Shown here one piece after another: positions 2,281 through 27,389 of a stretch of 27,389 nt of DNA. The stretch is from NCBI GenBank assembly GCA_011967385.1, contig GCA_011967385.1_4516.1, one strand, 5' to 3'. The position numbers were made by a program, and so were the translations under genes. This DNA is from a phage. Every line of letters begins with the position of its first letter. Within the stretch, counting starts at the first letter, position 1. The notes under the pieces were generated by a model that made no database searches, was not told where the DNA came from, and saw only the letters and a program-made list of their open reading frames with translations.

Positions 2281-4494
2281 TTATTTGGCCGCTTCCACGG
2301 CCTTCATGAATTTAACGATTTGAGCGACCTGTTCTTTGGAAAGAGTACCACGTCGTCCCATGTAGTCTGACACAATATGATAATTGGTTTCGAATTCAAT
2401 AACCATTTTATCATCATTATCGTAAGCATTATCTTTAAGCTTATCGAAAATTTTAGCACACAATTCTAACTTTTTATTCAGTTCTCTGTTAGTAGCACCT
2501 GAGAATCGATTCCATCCCCAACGATTATTTACCGTTGAGAGTTTTGCAAAATCTTTACTGATTTCTTTGTTTTTAGAGCTAAAATACTTACTAAGGAAGT
2601 TAAGCTCTTCATTACGAGTAATATGATTCAAATAAGGTTGAGCTCTACGACTTGGTGATACATACTCATCATAATCTACTTTATCGATTAGCATAATATA
2701 GTCGTTAATTGATTTTTCGAACAAGCATTCTACTTCGCCAAGTTTACGAACTTTCTTAGCAATCTGTGGACGAACTACAGTGAACTCTTTAATACCTGAC
2801 AAATCAGCAATACGGGTCAAGAAATTGGAGTCATAGTTCAACCAACCTTTATCTGCGTCAAGACATTCAGCATTAGAACGATTACGAACTATAGCATAAC
2901 CTTGGATTTCATCTGCTTCACTTGCCGGAATAAAGAGGTCTTCTGATACCCAAACATCGTTTTCATTCTTAAAGAATCGATGAGCACTTGGCGATTTAGG
3001 ACGAGGCTCATTAGTCCGTTTCCTGACTTCAATCCATGGCTTAACGATTTGTAAAAGCTCTGAAGTCTTGTACATGTTAATGTTGTCGCCATCAAAGATA
3101 ACTTTAAGGCGTTCCAGAAGTTTCATTGCATCTTCGTCTGTAGGGTCAACGAATAGTACGCTTTTACCAAAACCGCGTGGAACTTTACCGGTTAATTTAA
3201 CCTCGTCTTTAGACATTTCAATTGAATTAAGAGCTCGCATTAATGGAACGCGTCCCTTAACGTCGTCAATAACAATTTCAACGTTTTTAATGTTAATGCC
3301 AATCAGGCTGTTAATTGAAATAGTTGATGATGAGCTACCACTTTCACGAATACGACGAAGACGAGGGGATTCAACGATATCGTATACGACGCCAAGATTA
3401 CACCACTCAGGCCCCATTTTAAAACGTTTGTACAACTCAGAATAAGTTAGTTGTTCTTTAGAGTATTTCAGTGATTCAATATTAGACCCGGCCTTTTCCA
3501 TGTATTTACGAGCGGTATAACCAAGAGAATCAATTTCACGGAACACATGACGTGGGTATTTACAATCAATCCATTTCTTAGAATCTTCAGCGAACAATTT
3601 AGCATCGATTTCTGCAACACGTTTATGGATATTTGCTACTGTACGTTTATCAAATGACAATGCTTCACGAGACGGGGCTACATCTAGTTCACCCATAGGG
3701 AATTTAATATAAGCTGTAGTGCATCGCGTCATCATCCATGTTTGTTCTTTAATAACACTTCCGATTGGATATACAATACCACCATAAACAGCCATGATAT
3801 TACCACGTTCACCCCATGGAGCTTCCTTGGCCAAATATACATCATCAAATTCTGGGAAGTATTTAATATCTTTAACACCACGAACTTCTGCAATATCACC
3901 TAGAGGACGCATAACATATGCAATTTCGGATGCGAATTTTTCAAAATCTTCTGGGTTAACCGGTACGACTACTTCTACACCCGTACGGTCATCAGGACCC
4001 ATCTTATCTACAAAGGTTGGCTTAATTTGAGGACCCGTGTCATCTTGGTAGATTACGTAACCACGAACTTCACCGTTGTGATAAGACGTAAGGTTAAACG
4101 TATCGGTATATGCTAGCGGAGCTTTAGAGCCTAGTCCGAATCCACCAATGAAATCGTTGCTCGATGTTTTAGTTGAAGCAAAATATGAGTTATAGATTCC
4201 TGGCTCTTCGTCATTACCTCGAATAGTGAAATCGCTCATACCAGGACCAAAGTCTCGAACTACAAAGCGTGGGTCTAAACGACCTGGAGCCTGAACAATA
4301 AACTTATCAGTGCAACCGTTAAGAATTTGTCCATCAATACAGTTTGTGATTAATTCACGTACACAAGCCAATTCTTTGTTTGTATAAAGGTCATTAGACA
4401 AAATCTTATAAACTTTGCTATTGCCTTGAATAGTGAATGCTGTGCTCTTACCGCCTGAACCAATAATCGTTTCTTTAGCCGTTTCAATAATCAT
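2281..4494 (-). CDS. rIIA: rIIA protein (GHKL ATPase-like)
   Basis: 737 aa; N-terminal region closely matches recalled T4 rIIA (...LYTNK...VRELITN..., PGRLDPRFV.RDFGPGMSDF, FIGGFGLGSK). Confidence 0.92.
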   Translation of the reverse strand: MIIETAKETIIGSGGKSTAFTIQGNSKVYKILSNDLYTNKELACVRELITNCIDGQILNGCTDKFIVQAPGRLDPRFVVRDFGPGMSDFTIRGNDEEPGIYNSYFASTKTSSNDFIGGFGLGSKAPLAYTDTFNLTSYHNGEVRGYVIYQDDTGPQIKPTFVDKMGPDDRTGVEVVVPVNPEDFEKFASEIAYVMRPLGDIAEVRGVKDIKYFPEFDDVYLAKEAPWGERGNIMAVYGGIVYPIGSVIKEQTWMMTRCTTAYIKFPMGELDVAPSREALSFDKRTVANIHKRVAEIDAKLFAEDSKKWIDCKYPRHVFREIDSLGYTARKYMEKAGSNIESLKYSKEQLTYSELYKRFKMGPEWCNLGVVYDIVESPRLRRIRESGSSSSTISINSLIGINIKNVEIVIDDVKGRVPLMRALNSIEMSKDEVKLTGKVPRGFGKSVLFVDPTDEDAMKLLERLKVIFDGDNINMYKTSELLQIVKPWIEVRKRTNEPRPKSPSAHRFFKNENDVWVSEDLFIPASEADEIQGYAIVRNRSNAECLDADKGWLNYDSNFLTRIADLSGIKEFTVVRPQIAKKVRKLGEVECLFEKSINDYIMLIDKVDYDEYVSPSRRAQPYLNHITRNEELNFLSKYFSSKNKEISKDFAKLSTVNNRWGWNRFSGATNRELNKKLELCAKIFDKLKDNAYDNDDKMVIEFETNYHIVSDYMGRRGTLSKEQVAQIVKFMKAVEAAK

Positions 4495-4506: not shown

Positions 4507-4707
4507 TCACAAGTTACGTTTAAAAATTTCTGCTACTTCAAGAAGTTCTTCTTTAGTAGCTGTATCGGTTTGTATTTTATATCGAATTTCTTTAAAGCGT
4601 TCTTTAAAGGACTCTGCTGACTCGATATCAAAAAATCTTTGGATAAGCCGGAATTCCCGGAGCACTGCTTTATCAAAAAGTTCCAAGTCCACGTTATATG
4701 TTCTCAT
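4507..4707 (-). CDS. Small acidic protein, 66 aa, in the position of T4 rIIA.1
   Basis: ORF track; placed directly upstream of rIIA; identity inferred from synteny only. Confidence 0.5.
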   Translation of the reverse strand: MRTYNVDLELFDKAVLREFRLIQRFFDIESAESFKERFKEIRYKIQTDTATKEELLEVAEIFKRNL

Positions 4708-4734
4708 AATATTCTCTTCAGTAGATTCCTAGGG

Positions 4735-4785
4735 CACTATTACTAAAGACCATATAATCTATCATCTTATGTGTAATAGTGCCTC
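4735..4785 (-). promoter_or_regulatory. 11-bp perfect inverted repeat (GGCACTATTAC ... GTAATAGTGCC) with a 29-nt AT-rich spacer, in the intergenic region upstream of the rIIA.1-like gene
   Basis: Read directly from the sequence; the spacer contains -10-like TATAAT/TATGAT elements. Confidence 0.4.
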
Positions 4786-4799
4786 AGGCGATTCAGGAT

Positions 4800-5900
4800 T
4801 TACGCTGTGAAGATTTTATCCCACATCGCAACAACTGCATCTCGGTTATACTTCTTCCATACTGCTTCAGCACGTTTAACTCGAGCTTCGTATGTGTCAG
4901 TGAATTCTAATACAGCCTTTGTGTAAAGCGCAACTACTTCTTTCTTAGGAGTAGAGGAATCAATTTCTACACGCACAGTATCTGGGTCGTATTCGAATGT
5001 CGCATGCGGATAATCCTTAAAAACTAGCTGAATTACAGGGACACCTTTAGAGATGGCTTCAATAGAACTATTCTCTACCGTACCCGTGTCAGGACACGTA
5101 TTAATAAGTGCTTTAGCTGTTTTAAGACGTTCCATGATTTCACTGTGTGGAGCATCAATAATAACAGGATACTTAGCTGGTGGTGCCCATTTGCTTGGAC
5201 AATAACCAATACCATTTTCGCCTAGTGCTTTAATCGCTTCAAGAGCAACATCAGTACGACGCATTTTAGTGTCATAACGTTGTGCACTAATAATCAGATC
5301 AGTCGCCGGAAGAACTTCAGGTTTCTCATTCAAACAAATAACCGGATAATCTTCGGCTTCAAACAACGGATTTGCTCGCCAATAATCATAATCAATTTTG
5401 TCAGTCAGACCTGAAGTCATATAACAATATTTGCGTTCAAATTCACGGAAGGCTTTAGTAGGAGCATAACTCTTACCACCGTTCTTATGAATTTGAATAG
5501 TCTGGTCCCAAATTTGAACAATGCCACGAGATACCGGCTCAAATGGTGTTGCCATAAAATTCTTATGAACTTTAGAGAGACCTGCGTCTTTAATTGCCTG
5601 AACGGTTAGTTTAGTCGGTTCCATTGTAACAACAAAATCGTATTCATGGATGCCGGCTAGTTCAACAATCTTACGAGCCATAGTATAACTCATACCTAGA
5701 CTGAATTTAGTCAGATGACCAACAGGATGGTGTGTAACTTTCCAGTCACCAAACGTGTCATTATCAAAGCCGATATAATCAATATCAGCACCGATGGACA
5801 CAAGATATTTCAACACATTTAAATGTACTGCTTCAAGACCACCTTGTACACGTTCTGGGTTAAACGGGACTGCGCGAGATGGGATAAACATAACTTTCAT
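4800..5900 (-). CDS. GT-B fold glycosyltransferase (GT4-like), candidate DNA sugar transferase
   Basis: 366 aa; N-terminal MKVMFIP...ERVQGGLEAVHLNVLKYL and C-terminal ...TGTVENSSIEAISKGVPVI resemble GT4 donor-binding motifs; AAGG SD; sits between 39 and rIIA.1 where T4 has no such gene. Confidence 0.7.
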   Translation of the reverse strand: MKVMFIPSRAVPFNPERVQGGLEAVHLNVLKYLVSIGADIDYIGFDNDTFGDWKVTHHPVGHLTKFSLGMSYTMARKIVELAGIHEYDFVVTMEPTKLTVQAIKDAGLSKVHKNFMATPFEPVSRGIVQIWDQTIQIHKNGGKSYAPTKAFREFERKYCYMTSGLTDKIDYDYWRANPLFEAEDYPVICLNEKPEVLPATDLIISAQRYDTKMRRTDVALEAIKALGENGIGYCPSKWAPPAKYPVIIDAPHSEIMERLKTAKALINTCPDTGTVENSSIEAISKGVPVIQLVFKDYPHATFEYDPDTVRVEIDSSTPKKEVVALYTKAVLEFTDTYEARVKRAEAVWKKYNRDAVVAMWDKIFTA

Positions 5901-5914
5901 AATTAAGCCTTATT

Positions 5915-5944
5915 AAAATTAAAATGAAGCTCCCGAAGGAGCTT
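5915..5944 (-). terminator. UUCG-tetraloop hairpin plus U-rich tract directly after the gene 39 stop (terminator or attenuator before the glycosyltransferase gene)
   Basis: Minus-strand AAGCTCCttcgGGAGCTTcattttaatttt. Confidence 0.5.
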
Positions 5945-7760
5945 AGGACATCCATTCTTTACGAAGTTCTGAATCATCACCCAACAACATTTCAAAGAGT
6001 TCTTTCCAATTTTCAGGAAGTTTAACTACGTCGTACACAGGGTTTTGAATCATTTCACGATATTCTGACTTTTCAAGGGAGCCTAATCCCTTGATGTATC
6101 GAATACTATGCTTAGGCAGTGTATCTTTAGCTTCTTCATACTCAGCTACAGTATAAAACCATTTTTGAGATTTGCCAATTTGTGCAATAATTACAGGTGT
6201 TTTAACAAAGCGAATACGTCCTTGTTCAAACAATTCAGGCCAATTACTAAAGAAAGCAAGCAAAGCCGGATAGATACTTCCAAGACCGTCATGATCGGCA
6301 TCGGTCATAATTGCAATATTACGATAGTTCGTATTCTCTGCCTTTTCGCCAAGAATAAGACCTGTGATAGCACAGATATCAAAGAGCTCTTTGTTCTTCA
6401 TCATATCGGCATATGACATACCCCAGCTATTCATCACCTTACCACGTAATGGGAATCCGCCATGTAGTTCACGGTCACGAACATCAATGAGATATCCAAT
6501 TGCCGAATCACCTTCTGTTAAAAACAATGTCGTATCTGCATCTTTACCGCATTGGTTAGCTTTAATATGCTTATGAACCTTAGCTTTAGTGGCCTTTTTA
6601 GCTGCTTTAGTTTCTGCAGCCTTTTCTGCTGCCAATTTACGAGCTAATGCTGCTTCAACAATAGGCATAATCAAGGCTTCGTTTTTAAGAAGTGCCTGAG
6701 CAATTTTCTTAGCATCTAATTGGATATGATTACGAATATCACCATATGTTGACGTTAAACGTTCTTTAGTCTGAGAATCAAAACGCATGTTGCTCATGTC
6801 TCTAATAAACATCAACATTGTGAGGCATTCTTTAACACGAGCTTTAGTGACTTCAATACCCTTATATTTCTTTTTAATACCGGGCAAAAGATGTTCGCAG
6901 ATATCATCCATTACACATTCAACATGATGACCACCATTTTTAGTATGGATGTTATTCACATAAGTTAAATGACGGAAGCCATCTGGTGATGTTGTGAATG
7001 CTATAGAGACTTTATCATTTTCTTGAATGATGTTATCTTCACCAAATTGTTTAGCAAATCGTTTAAAATTACCATCAACCTTTTTACCATTAAATGTGAA
7101 CTTGATATCAGGATAAACGACTGCCAATGTTTGAAGTCGGTCTAAAGTAATATCTAAATAAATTTGAGATAAATTATGCTCTTCAAATGAAGTGAAATCA
7201 GGAGTGAAGATTACTTTAGTGCCTTTACCTTTAGATTTCTTAGAAGACCATGATTTGTTTTCCATTCCGTTTGAACAGTTAACAGTGATTTCATTTTCGC
7301 CATCTGACGTGATGCCTGTAAACAACGTAGAGAAGATATTAGTTAAACTACTCCCGACGCCGTTCATACCACCAGTCTTGCGTTCAGAGTCATCACCAAA
7401 GTTACCACCGGCCTTTGGAATAGTCCAGGCTGCTACAGGCCCAGGAATTTGTTCACCCGTTTGGTCAGTAACTAAACCTTGAGGAATACCACGTCCGTTA
7501 TCTTCCACCGAAACTTGATTATTTTTAATTTGCACATCAATTTTATTTGCAAACTTAAATGATGTACGAATAGCTTCATCAACCGAGTTGTCAATAATCT
7601 CATCGATTAATTTAACCAGACCTGGAACATATTCAACTTGTTGATATTTACCAAACAAAAAACGCTCGTGGGCTTCTTTAGCAGAAGAACCAATATACAT
7701 ACCACTACGTTTCTTAATATGTTCTACATCTGACAGTACCTTAATTTCATTTTTAATCAT
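5943..7760 (-). CDS. 39: DNA topoisomerase II large subunit, continuous 39+60 form (GyrB-like ATPase plus the segment that is gp60 in T4)
   Basis: 605 aa; N-terminus MIKNEIKVLSDVEHIKKRSGMYIGS matches T4 gp39; C-terminal ...AIMTDADHDGLGSIYP...WPELFEQGRIRFVKTPVIIAQ... matches T4 gp60; single uninterrupted ORF. Confidence 0.92.
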   Translation of the reverse strand: MIKNEIKVLSDVEHIKKRSGMYIGSSAKEAHERFLFGKYQQVEYVPGLVKLIDEIIDNSVDEAIRTSFKFANKIDVQIKNNQVSVEDNGRGIPQGLVTDQTGEQIPGPVAAWTIPKAGGNFGDDSERKTGGMNGVGSSLTNIFSTLFTGITSDGENEITVNCSNGMENKSWSSKKSKGKGTKVIFTPDFTSFEEHNLSQIYLDITLDRLQTLAVVYPDIKFTFNGKKVDGNFKRFAKQFGEDNIIQENDKVSIAFTTSPDGFRHLTYVNNIHTKNGGHHVECVMDDICEHLLPGIKKKYKGIEVTKARVKECLTMLMFIRDMSNMRFDSQTKERLTSTYGDIRNHIQLDAKKIAQALLKNEALIMPIVEAALARKLAAEKAAETKAAKKATKAKVHKHIKANQCGKDADTTLFLTEGDSAIGYLIDVRDRELHGGFPLRGKVMNSWGMSYADMMKNKELFDICAITGLILGEKAENTNYRNIAIMTDADHDGLGSIYPALLAFFSNWPELFEQGRIRFVKTPVIIAQIGKSQKWFYTVAEYEEAKDTLPKHSIRYIKGLGSLEKSEYREMIQNPVYDVVKLPENWKELFEMLLGDDSELRKEWMS

Positions 7761-7800
7761 GTTGTCTCCTCGTTATGAAGGTATTCTATCATCCGAAATC

Positions 7801-7825
7801 TAAAGCAAAAAGGGCCGAAGCCCTT
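7801..7825 (-). terminator. Rho-independent terminator after the 140-aa gene: GC stem, UUCG loop, U-tract
   Basis: Minus-strand AAGGGCttcgGCCCTTtttgcttta; stem overlaps the stop codon. Confidence 0.55.
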
Positions 7826-16287: not shown

Positions 16288-16520
16288 TCACAGCTCCCTG
16301 AGCTTGAACCACAATCAGAATAACTTGTCCCAGAATCACCAGGCCAAGACGATACGTATGAATGATTATAACTTGAAGAGTTTGAAGCAGACTTAAGACG
16401 AATAACTTCTTCCATCATGCCGTCACCAATGTATTCCCAACTTTTTTCATGTGTATTAGGAATAGGCATCATCCCTTCGCCTGGTTTAGCAGCAAAAAAC
16501 TTCTTCAGCATCGTAAGCAT
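16284..16520 (-). CDS. Hypothetical protein with a Ser/Cys-rich C-terminal tail; start ambiguous
   Basis: ORF track 16284..16595; the upstream part overlaps the preceding gene, so the start is set at an internal ATG. Confidence 0.4.
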   Translation of the reverse strand: MLTMLKKFFAAKPGEGMMPIPNTHEKSWEYIGDGMMEEVIRLKSASNSSSYNHSYVSSWPGDSGTSYSDCGSSSGSCE

Positions 16521-23881: not shown

Positions 23882-24244
23882 TTAAAAGAATTTAAATTTT
23901 TTCTTGGTTCGTTCATTAAAAGCTTGTTGTACCTGCATTGTAACACATTTTTCAACATGCGGCGCAAGTTCTGCTTTTCTGTCCTGGTCAAGAACTGCAA
24001 AGTCCATTACGATTTTACCATCAACCCAATCTAGTTTTGTAATATAGACTATATGATGAGAACCGTCTTCAAGTGTAATCAGAATCTCTTGAATGACATT
24101 TTCCATTGCTGAACGGATAATTTTAAGAGATTCATTAAACACTCGTTCTTTGCGAATGTCCTCCCCTTCCGAAGAAGGGGATTCATCAACGATTTCTAGA
24201 TTTAAATCATCGAGATTATTCATCGAAATCTTCCATTTCGTCAA
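23882..24244 (-). CDS. 40: Protein in the position of T4 gene 40 (head vertex assembly chaperone), 120 aa
   Basis: ORF track; lies between 41 and uvsX as in T4; sequence identity not verified. Confidence 0.55.
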   Translation of the reverse strand: MTKWKISMNNLDDLNLEIVDESPSSEGEDIRKERVFNESLKIIRSAMENVIQEILITLEDGSHHIVYITKLDWVDGKIVMDFAVLDQDRKAELAPHVEKCVTMQVQQAFNERTKKKFKFF

Positions 24245-25154
24245 GGTCGTTTTCTATATCTGCTGCAGATGGAGCATCAGAAGTTTTAACCGGAACTTTA
24301 GTTGTTGCTTTGCAATTAATAAGGTCGTTAACTGCGTCATCAACTTCTTTAATAGAAGAGATAGCACCTAGTTTATATTTAGTTTCAATTGCATCTCGGA
24401 AAGGTTTGTGTTTAAACAACGGTCCCCAGAATTCTACACAATCGGTAGCTTTAGCGCGCCATGATTTCTCTTCACGAATCATTTCACCTGTTTCTTCGTC
24501 AAGGAATTCACGAGCATACCAACCGGCTTTAGGTTTAACTACAAAACCAATTTCAGTTGCCATTTCTAGCAAGCCACTGAATGGGTCAATACCGCCATCA
24601 AAATTAACCGTGATCGGGAAAGTAGATTTCTCTTTAACCGTACGAGATTTTTCTGCTTTCAACGTGAAGTCATAACCGGTCAATTCTGTACCTTCTTTAA
24701 CCTGACGTTTAGAGATAAAGAATACAGTGTTAGCAGAGTAAAGAATACCTGTACCACCACCCATAATCTCTTTAGGATATAGTCCGCCGATTTCCATTGC
24801 TGTATGGTTGATTGCAACACACGGAATATCTTTAATAGTCAGATACGGGGTCACAATACGGAAAAGAGATTTAAGTGCCTTAGCACGAGACATATCACCT
24901 ACGACTTTCTCGTTCAACGCATCTTCGGTTTCTTTCTTAGATGCAGTATTACCGATTGAATCGATAAAGATAATAACTTTATCACCGCGTTCAATTGCAT
25001 CAAGCTGATTAGTCATATCAACTTTAAGTTGTTCGACGGACTGAATTGGTGTATGAACTACACGGTCTAAATCAACACCCATCGAACGGAAGTAAGATTC
25101 TGAAGCACCAAATTCCGAATCATAGAACAAACAGATTGCATCATTATATTTTAC
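24216..25154 (-). pseudogene. uvsX: uvsX recombinase (RecA-like) homolog lacking the N-terminal 80 or so residues, including the Walker A motif; no ATG start
   Basis: Homology to recalled T4 UvsX starts at ...YNDAICLFYDSEFG (T4 ...YPDAVCLFYDSEFG) and continues to the acidic C-terminus; Walker B VIIFIDSIGN present; in-frame TGA (25155-25157) and TAA (25161-25163) directly upstream. Confidence 0.7.
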
Positions 25155-25220: not shown

Positions 25221-25769
25221 TTAACGAGCCCATTTAATGATTTCTGTAATCAAATTATTACGTTCGCTTGCATTAAATCCTATAACTTTGTTAGAACCAT
25301 CATGATTAAGTAATTGATACGTTTGGATTTTGTTATGAATTGCAAACTCTTCAAAATATGAAATGACTGTATTAAAACCGAATGAAGACAAAGTAATAAG
25401 GTCGTCTTCAAAGCTTTCAGTCATTTCGTTACGTGTTAAAATAATTGTGAACACATCATGGTTTTGACAAAGACGAACATAATCCTGTTCATAAACGTCA
25501 AGAACCGAGTCCGCATCTTGTCGAATACGTCCATAAACCCAGTTACTAATATATCCACGGTCTAATAGATAAATCTTAGTAGGGTCTAAATAATTCAACA
25601 TCGTTTCGAAACAGCCAACTTCATTTCGAGACTTAACATCGAAACGCCCATCAACTGTTCGTTTAGGGAAATCAATCTTTACATATCTTTCACTAATTTC
25701 CATTATGTCATTAATGAAAGTTGTTTTACCGGCATTATCTGGGCCATCTACTAAAATAATTTTAGCCAT
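25221..25769 (-). CDS. P-loop nucleoside/nucleotide kinase-like protein, 182 aa
   Basis: N-terminal Walker A ILVDGPDNAGKTTF; LLDRGYIS resembles the DR(Y/H) motif of thymidylate/dNMP kinases; GAGGA SD; start 1 nt after the upstream stop. Confidence 0.65.
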   Translation of the reverse strand: MAKIILVDGPDNAGKTTFINDIMEISERYVKIDFPKRTVDGRFDVKSRNEVGCFETMLNYLDPTKIYLLDRGYISNWVYGRIRQDADSVLDVYEQDYVRLCQNHDVFTIILTRNEMTESFEDDLITLSSFGFNTVISYFEEFAIHNKIQTYQLLNHDGSNKVIGFNASERNNLITEIIKWAR

Positions 25770-25770
25770 T

Positions 25771-26670
25771 TTATTCCTCGATTACGACATCTTCGTATTT
25801 AGGTATATTATACGGCGAAGAAATTAAAGCATTAAAGTAGATGAACTCACCAAGACCTGGATGGAATACTTCTTCAGGATTTTCGAAATATTGAATCTTC
25901 GGACGTCCTTTAAGAATTTGATAGTACTCAGTTTTAGTTGGATTAAAAATTCGAATCAGCGCTTCTTCAGGATACTTATTTCTGTCGAAACTATTATTTG
26001 GATCGGTTATATAAAGTGGTTGACCTAATTGAATTGCGCATTCAACCACTTGTTCAAAACGATAGCATGGGTCACTAATTCGAAATGGATGAAAAATACC
26101 ATCTAGATGAATAGGAGCCAAATCACCTACAAGACGCTGCATGACGGAAGGACGTATAACTTTCTGCGTTACGATAATCTTATTACCATCTGCACCTGCG
26201 TTAACCAGCACTTCTTTTTGACGTTCATTCAACACAGTAGTTTGAAGTGAACGATTAACCGACAACATGTCGGTTTTTAAGAATTCATCAATATAAAAAC
26301 GTGGTTTATTAGGGTCTGCAGTGATATTGAAATTGAATTCTACATCAAAAGCGCCATCATATCCAGTGATATCTGTGATTAGAAAATCACAATCATAATA
26401 AGCAATTAATGAATCAACCACAAATTCATTTTCAGACCAGAAATATTTACGAGTGTTATACGCGTTATCTTTATACCATAATGGAACAAACTTAAATTCC
26501 GGGAAAAGACGTTCACATTCTTTAATATCAGATGCATTACGTGGATATGTAATCACATCACCCGGATTAGCACGGTGCAAATGAAGTTGGAAGTTGCCAT
26601 CCTTAAGGATAGCATACTGTCCAGTTTCATAAGACCGCATACTCAAGATTGGTACGCGGAAAATAGCCAT
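25771..26670 (-). CDS. Orphan protein, 299 aa, no motif recognised; occupies the position of beta-glucosyltransferase in T4
   Basis: ORF track; ATG overlaps the stop of the upstream gene (TAATG). Confidence 0.6.
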   Translation of the reverse strand: MAIFRVPILSMRSYETGQYAILKDGNFQLHLHRANPGDVITYPRNASDIKECERLFPEFKFVPLWYKDNAYNTRKYFWSENEFVVDSLIAYYDCDFLITDITGYDGAFDVEFNFNITADPNKPRFYIDEFLKTDMLSVNRSLQTTVLNERQKEVLVNAGADGNKIIVTQKVIRPSVMQRLVGDLAPIHLDGIFHPFRISDPCYRFEQVVECAIQLGQPLYITDPNNSFDRNKYPEEALIRIFNPTKTEYYQILKGRPKIQYFENPEEVFHPGLGEFIYFNALISSPYNIPKYEDVVIEE

Positions 26671-27389
26671 TAGTCAAGGAATCCTTTAACATAATCAAAA
26701 TCACGTTCAAACACATGGGCACTTACCATGGTATGAGTATAATCACCAACTTCTACACCGCATTCGTTAGCGATATAATGAAGTAATTTTCCTTGGAGAT
26801 AAAAATCCAACTGCATAACAACAGCACAGTTCTGAGAACGCATATGGCAGTGTGTATAAAGCTTACCATCACGAATATAATAAGTAACTGAGTCAGTACA
26901 TGGATATTCAAGCGTTTCGTCTGAATCAAGCAAAGCCTGATCAGAACTTTCTAGAATTTGGAACACAACTCTTCGGGAGTTAGGCTTCTCTTTAAGTTCT
27001 TTTAGAAGAGCTGGTAATTGGGCCGCAATGCGAGGACCATAGAAAGTGTTGAAGTTCGCCGGCAAAACATCTGATTTTGGTTTAGAAATAAATTTAGCGA
27101 CATTAGGATATGCCTTAAACGCTTCTTCTGCGTTGGTACCACCAGAAATCATAAACTTCCAGAAGTCTTCGGCATATTCATAAGAGATGCGGTTAATACG
27201 TGGATCGGTCATTTTGAATGATGATGGAGTGTCAACAACTACTGTCATAGACCCAATTTCATTACAACGTCCAATACGAGAATCAGTTACGAATTCCGGG
27301 TTTTCTAAAATTTCACGATTGACTGCTTTAAATGCGGTTTGAAAATCTGCGGCTTTGATATATTTCATTGTGTTATGTTTTCCCATGTT
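26670..27389 (-). CDS. Thymidylate synthase / dCMP hydroxymethylase family enzyme, partial (N-terminus beyond the window end); gene 42 position
   Basis: NSRRVVFQ, active-site region PCTDSVTYYIRDGKLY...HMRSQNCAVVMQLDF and HVFERDF align with TS-family motifs (catalytic Cys, RS.D); appears more divergent from recalled T4 gp42 than its neighbours are from their T4 orthologs. Confidence 0.7.
   Translation of the reverse strand, partial: NMGKHNTMKYIKAADFQTAFKAVNREILENPEFVTDSRIGRCNEIGSMTVVVDTPSSFKMTDPRINRISYEYAEDFWKFMISGGTNAEEAFKAYPNVAKFISKPKSDVLPANFNTFYGPRIAAQLPALLKELKEKPNSRRVVFQILESSDQALLDSDETLEYPCTDSVTYYIRDGKLYTHCHMRSQNCAVVMQLDFYLQGKLLHYIANECGVEVGDYTHTMVSAHVFERDFDYVKGFLD

Follow-up and report, generated by a model that had tools for sequence, protein, structure and literature searches.

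Thomas et al. (2018; PMC6024577) proposed that ORF003c of phage RB69, their best candidate by HMM and HHpred searches, was an arabinosyltransferase for the synthesis of arabinosyl-hmC. This proposal, which the first-pass annotation of the locus described here had cited accurately, is now outdated, as the RB69-type modified base is reported to be 5-hydroxycytosine (5hoC) with an ether-linked arabinofuranose and not hmC (PMC13326640, PMC13390438). Using MS and NMR, Lee et al. (2026; PMC13326640) found that the RB69 cytosines were present as beta-D-Araf-(1->3)-alpha-D-Araf-5-hydroxy-2'-deoxycytidine, alongside the mono form. In that study, 5hodCMP synthesis by RB69 gp48 was marked as experimentally confirmed, gp46:47 was proposed to be the first transferase, and gp3 was proposed to be "beta-arabinosyltransferase 2"; the role of gp3 was worded as "we propose", and RB69 gp3 was not among the experimentally confirmed activities. 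A role for the kinase-like protein of the RB69 gp45 type was also proposed (Table 1 in PMC13326640). Additionally, gp76 and gp77 of the Acinetobacter phage DLP3 jointly used UDP-Araf to extend RB69 DNA in vitro by a third arabinose, and none of the individual DLP3 glycosyltransferases, gp76 and gp77 included, was active on 5hoC DNA (Lee et al. 2026). An independent study of Mosigvirus NP gave a mono:di ratio of 1:4, and double arabinosylation was reported for Bas46 and Bas47. Bas46 reportedly becomes sensitive to a defence system encoded on a plasmid when its arabinosyltransferase Aat is deleted; Aat may correspond to the gp3-type gene of the DNA analysed here.

The DNA that we analysed was a stretch of 27,389 nucleotides from a phage, hereafter called the window. 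The locus of interest in the window contained the following features:

2281..4494: rIIA, 737 aa, beyond rIIA.1 (ORF listing and Pfam)
4507..4707, minus strand: rIIA.1, 66 aa, the downstream neighbour of the transferase (Pfam T4_RIIA1, E 2e-30)
4800..5900, minus strand: GT-B glycosyltransferase ORF, 366 aa, ATG start (ORF listing; ortholog of RB69 ORF003c/gp3)
5927..5944, minus strand: hairpin (short, GC-rich, T-rich tail) between the stop of gene 39 and the start of the transferase (sequence)
5943..7760, minus strand: gene 39, 605 aa, large subunit of topoisomerase II, unsplit (Pfam DNA_gyraseB, HATPase_c and Toprim; RB69 annotation)
7783..7807, minus strand: MotA-box-like middle-promoter match directly upstream of gene 39 (pattern TGCTTNA-N11-13-TANNNT)

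The ORF listing and the Pfam matches of the neighbours agreed with the first-pass annotation, which had placed a 366-aa ORF between gene 39 and rIIA.1 and had stated that T4 carries no glycosyltransferase there; the T4 interval from rIIA.1 to 39 holds 60, 60.1 and mobA. The gene order at the RB69 ORF003c locus was the same as in the window, and alignment of the window protein with RB69 ORF003c/gp3 (NP_861693.1), a comparison that had been suggested at the outset, revealed two proteins of equal length with 362 of 366 residues identical. None of the four differences (E16D, T56N, I231A and T327I) fell in a family-invariant column. When the gene and both neighbours were used as a 1.7-kb query, 154 phage records covered at least 80% of it, mostly at 95-99% identity, and the window was found to be of Mosigvirus origin. 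The GC content of the transferase gene (0.38-0.39) was that of its flanks, and the approximately 156 close records with the transferase (at least 95% identical) were essentially all Escherichia and Shigella phages. A recent horizontal insertion of the gene was considered and rejected because of this neighbour-like GC content and the presence of the gene in these records.

An AAGG ribosome-binding site was located 8 nt 5' of the transferase ATG, within the 42-nt spacer that follows gene 39, and a search for a promoter in this spacer found none. The hairpin at 5927..5944 was the one hit of a terminator-like scan for which 1.0 was expected by chance, which makes it weak by itself. The MotA-box-like pattern occurred at seven sites in the window, compared with 1.33 expected by chance. 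The transferase gene and the prereplicative topoisomerase gene 39 therefore probably belong to one transcription unit, with the MotA-box-like site upstream of gene 39 as its inferred source. Further MotA-box-like sites were present on the minus strand at 16365..16389 and 25807..25831. Downstream of the transferase, the spacer that separates its stop codon from rIIA.1 also contained a long hairpin (4728..4788, minus strand) with a perfect 11-bp stem (GGCACUAUUAC...GUAAUAGUGCC), an MFE of -29.5 kcal/mol and a z of -3.25 against shuffled sequences; as no U-run follows it, this hairpin is not a typical terminator.

The window protein matched PHROG 8302 ("unknown function") over residues 1-366 with an E value of 1.8e-222. 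In a sequence search against the PDB (E 2e-250), it was 98-99% identical to the phage HY126 glycosyltransferase, the structure of which has been deposited without ligand (9IQZ) and with UDP (9IR0); the PDB sequence cluster comprises four chains over the two entries, approximately two in each. The source study of the HY126 entries is He et al. (Nat Chem Biol 2026). As a near-identical protein has already been solved, the transferase is not novel. Its gene, structure and proposed role are published, the transferase is an ordinary member of a described system, and it brings nothing new to the field. The gp3 family is very small: a word-based search returned five clusters, 11 representatives were recovered when 1.84 billion proteins were searched exhaustively with a profile, and IMG/VR contained seven loci, all of which were from Mosigvirus or Acinetobacter phages.

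Sequence profiles were of little help in classifying the protein. No match was found in Pfam at E values up to 10 or in NCBIfam, and the window protein was not homologous in sequence to either of the T4 glucosyltransferases, a-gt and b-gt. Among 12 family members, the Pfam glycosyltransferase matches were weak, the best being GT4-conflict (0.0028), Glyco_trans_1_4 (0.013) and Glycos_transf_1 (0.048), and searches of the PDB with family profiles likewise gave nothing from which a GT family could be assigned. Fold comparison was the only route that placed the transferase in a glycosyltransferase class. A structure model built from 12 sequences had a pLDDT of 91.9 and a pTM of 0.88 and revealed two Rossmann-like domains in GT-B topology; an earlier model from six sequences was poor (pLDDT 64) and was discarded. 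The best Foldseek matches in the PDB were 9IR0 (TM 0.95, 99% identity) and 9IQZ (TM 0.97), followed within the top 50 by GT-B enzymes of the GT4 type, such as tetrahydrobiopterin glucosyltransferase, BshA and PimA, with E values from 5e-13 to approximately 1e-8. Binding of a nucleotide-sugar donor is indicated by the 99%-identical chain in 9IR0, which by its entry title is the "phage HY126 glycosyltransferase with UDP".

The overall architecture of the protein was thus similar to that of GT4 enzymes, although there were clear differences. Sequence identity to the GT4-type enzymes (sucrose-phosphate synthase 6KIH, BshA, PimA and tetrahydrobiopterin glucosyltransferase) was 10-15%. The invariant or near-invariant positions of the family were the GG loop (G20), R208-x5-R214, N267-T268, T274, E276 and E281-A282. 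G20/G21, R208, R214 and E281 are predicted to contact UDP, and D88 or E94 is a candidate catalytic base. Whereas GT4 enzymes contain an E-x7-E motif in the C-terminal domain, this motif was not found in the gp3 family, in which the corresponding signature is E276-x4-E281-A and the residue eight positions before E281 is the nearly invariant G273; the "E-x7-E-like" C-terminal signature read earlier is really E276-x4-E281. In addition, the proposed acceptor of gp3 is a sugar on DNA and its assigned product is beta, in contrast to the retaining GT4 enzymes. The transferase is therefore GT4-like in fold and not a GT4 member at the sequence level, and the initial GT-B assignment is supported by the model and by 9IQZ and 9IR0.

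At its 3' end, approximately 20 kb from the gp3-type gene, the window contained a second transferase and part of an arabinosylation cassette:

25221..25769, minus strand: nucleotide-kinase-like protein, 182 aa, RB69 gp45 ortholog, in the same cassette (ORF; RB69 annotation "thymidylate kinase")
25771..26670, minus strand: gp46:47-type transferase, intact, 299 aa, at the T4 beta-gt position (ORF and tblastn; role proposed in PMC13326640)
26670..27386, minus strand: thymidylate-synthase homolog, 238 aa, ortholog of RB69 gp48, located where T4 has gene 42 (Pfam Thymidylat_synt, E 2e-15)

The thymidylate-synthase (ThyA) homolog was identical to RB69 gp48 at 236 of 238 residues (99%) and near-identical to PDB 9IQC, 9IR2 and 9IQU; its sequence identifies it as the 5-hydroxy-dCMP synthase, with the activity of gp48 taken from PMC13326640. 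The published 5hodCMP-synthase signature is D169N. In an ungapped comparison with an approximate E. coli ThyA sequence, N186 of the homolog lay at D169 and D194 at N177, which would fit this signature, but BLAST and MAFFT shifted the stretch by two residues. The kinase-like protein gave only a faint match to dTMP kinase (E 0.0055). The 299-aa transferase was 100% identical to several Mosigvirus records, was not a paralog of the gp3-type enzyme (BLASTP E 2.0), and is of the type proposed to attach the first arabinose to 5hoC in alpha linkage (PMC13326640). At 27389 the window stops shortly after the synthase gene, and the UDP-arabinofuranose genes (A5P isomerase, kinase/pyrophosphorylase and phosphatase) lie further along in RB69. 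With regard to the non-glucose sugar on hmC predicted by the first-pass annotation, an arabinose system was indeed present, but the base is reported to be 5-hydroxycytosine (PMC13326640, PMC13390438). In the RB69 record, the first transferase was split (ORF046c and ORF047c; L001, 24597..25497; two tblastn pieces), while other Mosigvirus records had one ORF; the split has been put down in the literature to an error in the sequencing of RB69, and the intact ORF in these records and in the window fits that account. One of the MotA-box-like sites, 25807..25831, was located inside the 3' end of the first-transferase gene, upstream of the kinase-like gene.

We compared the distributions of the two transferases using tblastn. 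Genes similar to gp3 were present in 212 phage records, of which approximately 156 were Escherichia or Shigella phages (at least 95% identity, with one copy per record among the records listed) and 55 were Acinetobacter phages (approximately 42% identity, with two copies per record among the records listed). The first transferase was present in 349 phage records, including Klebsiella, Serratia, Enterobacter, Proteus and Yersinia phages, and no phages named after these five hosts were found among the gp3-like tblastn matches. Escherichia records with the first transferase numbered 177, compared with 137 for gp3. As the gp3-like records were fewer and those of the first transferase broader, the gp3 family is a nested subset. 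The remaining record among the 212 was from Tegunavirus, presumably a genus of Yersinia phages; other Yersinia phage records had only the first transferase.

In the Acinetobacter phage Apostate, the two paralogs (orf069 and orf070) directly adjoined the rest of the cassette. Identity between the Acinetobacter paralogs was 57%, compared with 40-43% to the window protein, and a neighbour-joining tree placed the duplication within the Acinetobacter lineage; gp3 is thus co-orthologous to both. DLP3 gp76 and gp77, which use UDP-Araf to lengthen the arabinose chain on 5hoC DNA (PMC13326640), belong to the same family as gp3 over the full length and share the GG loop, the R-x5-R motif and the E..EA residues. 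The arrangements are different: the DLP3/Apostate type has two tandem paralogs inside the cassette, while Mosigvirus has a single copy approximately 20 kb away, and both DLP3 proteins are needed for the third arabinose, while only one gp3 is available in Mosigvirus. The reported number of sugars tracked the copy number: Thanatos, with a single glycosyltransferase, is mono-arabinosylated, one gp3-like copy accompanies di-arabinosylation (RB69, NP and Bas46/47), and two accompany tri-arabinosylation (DLP3).

Four divergent members of the family were found on contigs that were short or otherwise uninformative. Two of these, P0009 and P0010, fell outside the Mosigvirus and Acinetobacter phages; they came from metagenomic phage contigs (L003, 10001..11140, and L004, 3040..4224) and were 35-39% identical, and no arabinosylation cassette was found in the flanks available for either. 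P0009 was located among tail, baseplate and terminase genes, and the member on the other divergent contig adjoined DNA ligase and DsbA-like genes.

Taken with the published chemistry, these comparisons make it probable that the window transferase has an add-on role in 5hoC arabinosylation, as a second DNA arabinofuranosyltransferase that uses UDP-Araf. This assignment draws on the gene itself, its identity to gp3, its fold, the UDP-bound crystal match, the restricted distribution and its presence with the cassette, as observed here; the modification chemistry and the activity attributed to the Acinetobacter homologs are taken from the papers. That the window enzyme itself makes the second linkage is most likely. 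The RB69 gp3 ortholog is a soluble GT-B enzyme that binds a UDP-sugar and would act on phage DNA once the first arabinose sits on 5-hydroxycytosine. A second D-arabinofuranose would then be moved from UDP-Araf, supplied by the phage cassette adjoining uvsX, to O3 of the first sugar, and the expected product would be beta-D-Araf-(1->3)-alpha-D-Araf-O5-deoxycytidine. Probable co-transcription with the prereplicative gene 39 would make the transferase available during DNA replication. The extra sugar would serve as an add-on layer that further shields the DNA from host nucleases and defence systems. As the window carries the standard two-transferase version, di-arabinosylated DNA is predicted for this phage. 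Arabinosylated 5-hydroxycytosine guards Mosigvirus DNA against restriction enzymes and some CRISPR systems, and it hinders the sequencing and engineering of Mosigvirus phages, which are members of phage therapy collections.

In the 2018 proposal, which is also the reading of the first-pass annotation, DNA arabinosylation relies primarily or exclusively on this enzyme, and it places the first arabinose on the modified cytosine. It was the best HMM and HHpred candidate at that time (PMC6024577), it is the more typical-looking GT-B enzyme of the two phage transferases and it binds UDP. However, many phage groups have a first transferase linked to a 5hoC synthase but have no gp3-like gene, Thanatos is reported to be mono-arabinosylated with its single glycosyltransferase, the first step has since been attributed to gp46:47, and the individual DLP3 enzymes, including gp76 and gp77, were inactive on 5hoC DNA. 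A primary role is consequently improbable, and of the arabinosyltransferase role named in the first-pass annotation, the enzyme class was upheld and the step probably was not, the second arabinose now being assigned to gp3 and the first to the gp46:47 type at 25771..26670.

We also have little reason to expect that the transferase works only in a complex, whether as a self-assembly or joined to the gp46:47 transferase, or that it acts at more than one step; in either case, a scheme of one enzyme per linkage would be too simple. The joint requirement for DLP3 gp76 and gp77, the approximately two chains in each PDB entry of the cluster and the coexistence of mono- and di-forms in virion DNA are consistent with such a complex, but Mosigvirus has a single copy approximately 20 kb from the other transferase, and the Acinetobacter duplication is lineage-specific (57% identity between the paralogs and 40-43% to gp3). 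It is very improbable that the transferase acts on a non-DNA substrate, for example a protein, a small molecule or part of the host envelope. The acceptors of all its structural neighbours are lipids, small molecules or polysaccharides, and P0009, a divergent relative, is encoded among genes for the tail and baseplate; in contrast, the Acinetobacter homologs are embedded in the arabinosylation cassette, the DLP3 homologs act on DNA in vitro, and, in the phage records searched, gp3-like genes occur in the same groups as the cassette.

Under the preferred role as second arabinosyltransferase, the stereochemistry of the two window enzymes differs in an unexpected manner. Both phage transferases resemble retaining GT4 enzymes, and the linkages have been assigned as alpha for the first transferase and beta for gp3 (PMC13326640). 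A single UDP-Araf donor presumably serves both. As both are GT4-like while the products are alpha and beta, one of the two would invert on a normally retaining scaffold or would use the other donor anomer. Tentatively, the gp3 family may use a GT4-like scaffold to form a beta-arabinofuranosyl linkage on a DNA-attached sugar, with the single Mosigvirus enzyme working alone, unlike the Acinetobacter pair, although we regard this combination as unlikely. If it is true, the gp3 family would stand out mechanistically among GT-B enzymes as an unusual variant, unless the published structures or biochemistry have already settled the matter.

A minor observation concerns uvsX, which adjoins the cassette. 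In the window, uvsX (24216..25143) was a 5'-truncated ORF of 304 aa, compared with 390 aa in RB69. The truncation corresponded to a clean 266-bp deletion relative to RB69, with the junction at approximately 25142/25143, and it removed the ribosome-binding site, the ATG and approximately the first 81 codons, including the expected region of the nucleotide-binding loop. The stretch missing from the window was flanked in RB69 by a near-identical direct repeat, AAATATAA(T/A)GATGC. The truncation is either a microhomology deletion in the isolate or an assembly error, and the 266 bp were retained in all 25 of the best-matching Mosigvirus records.
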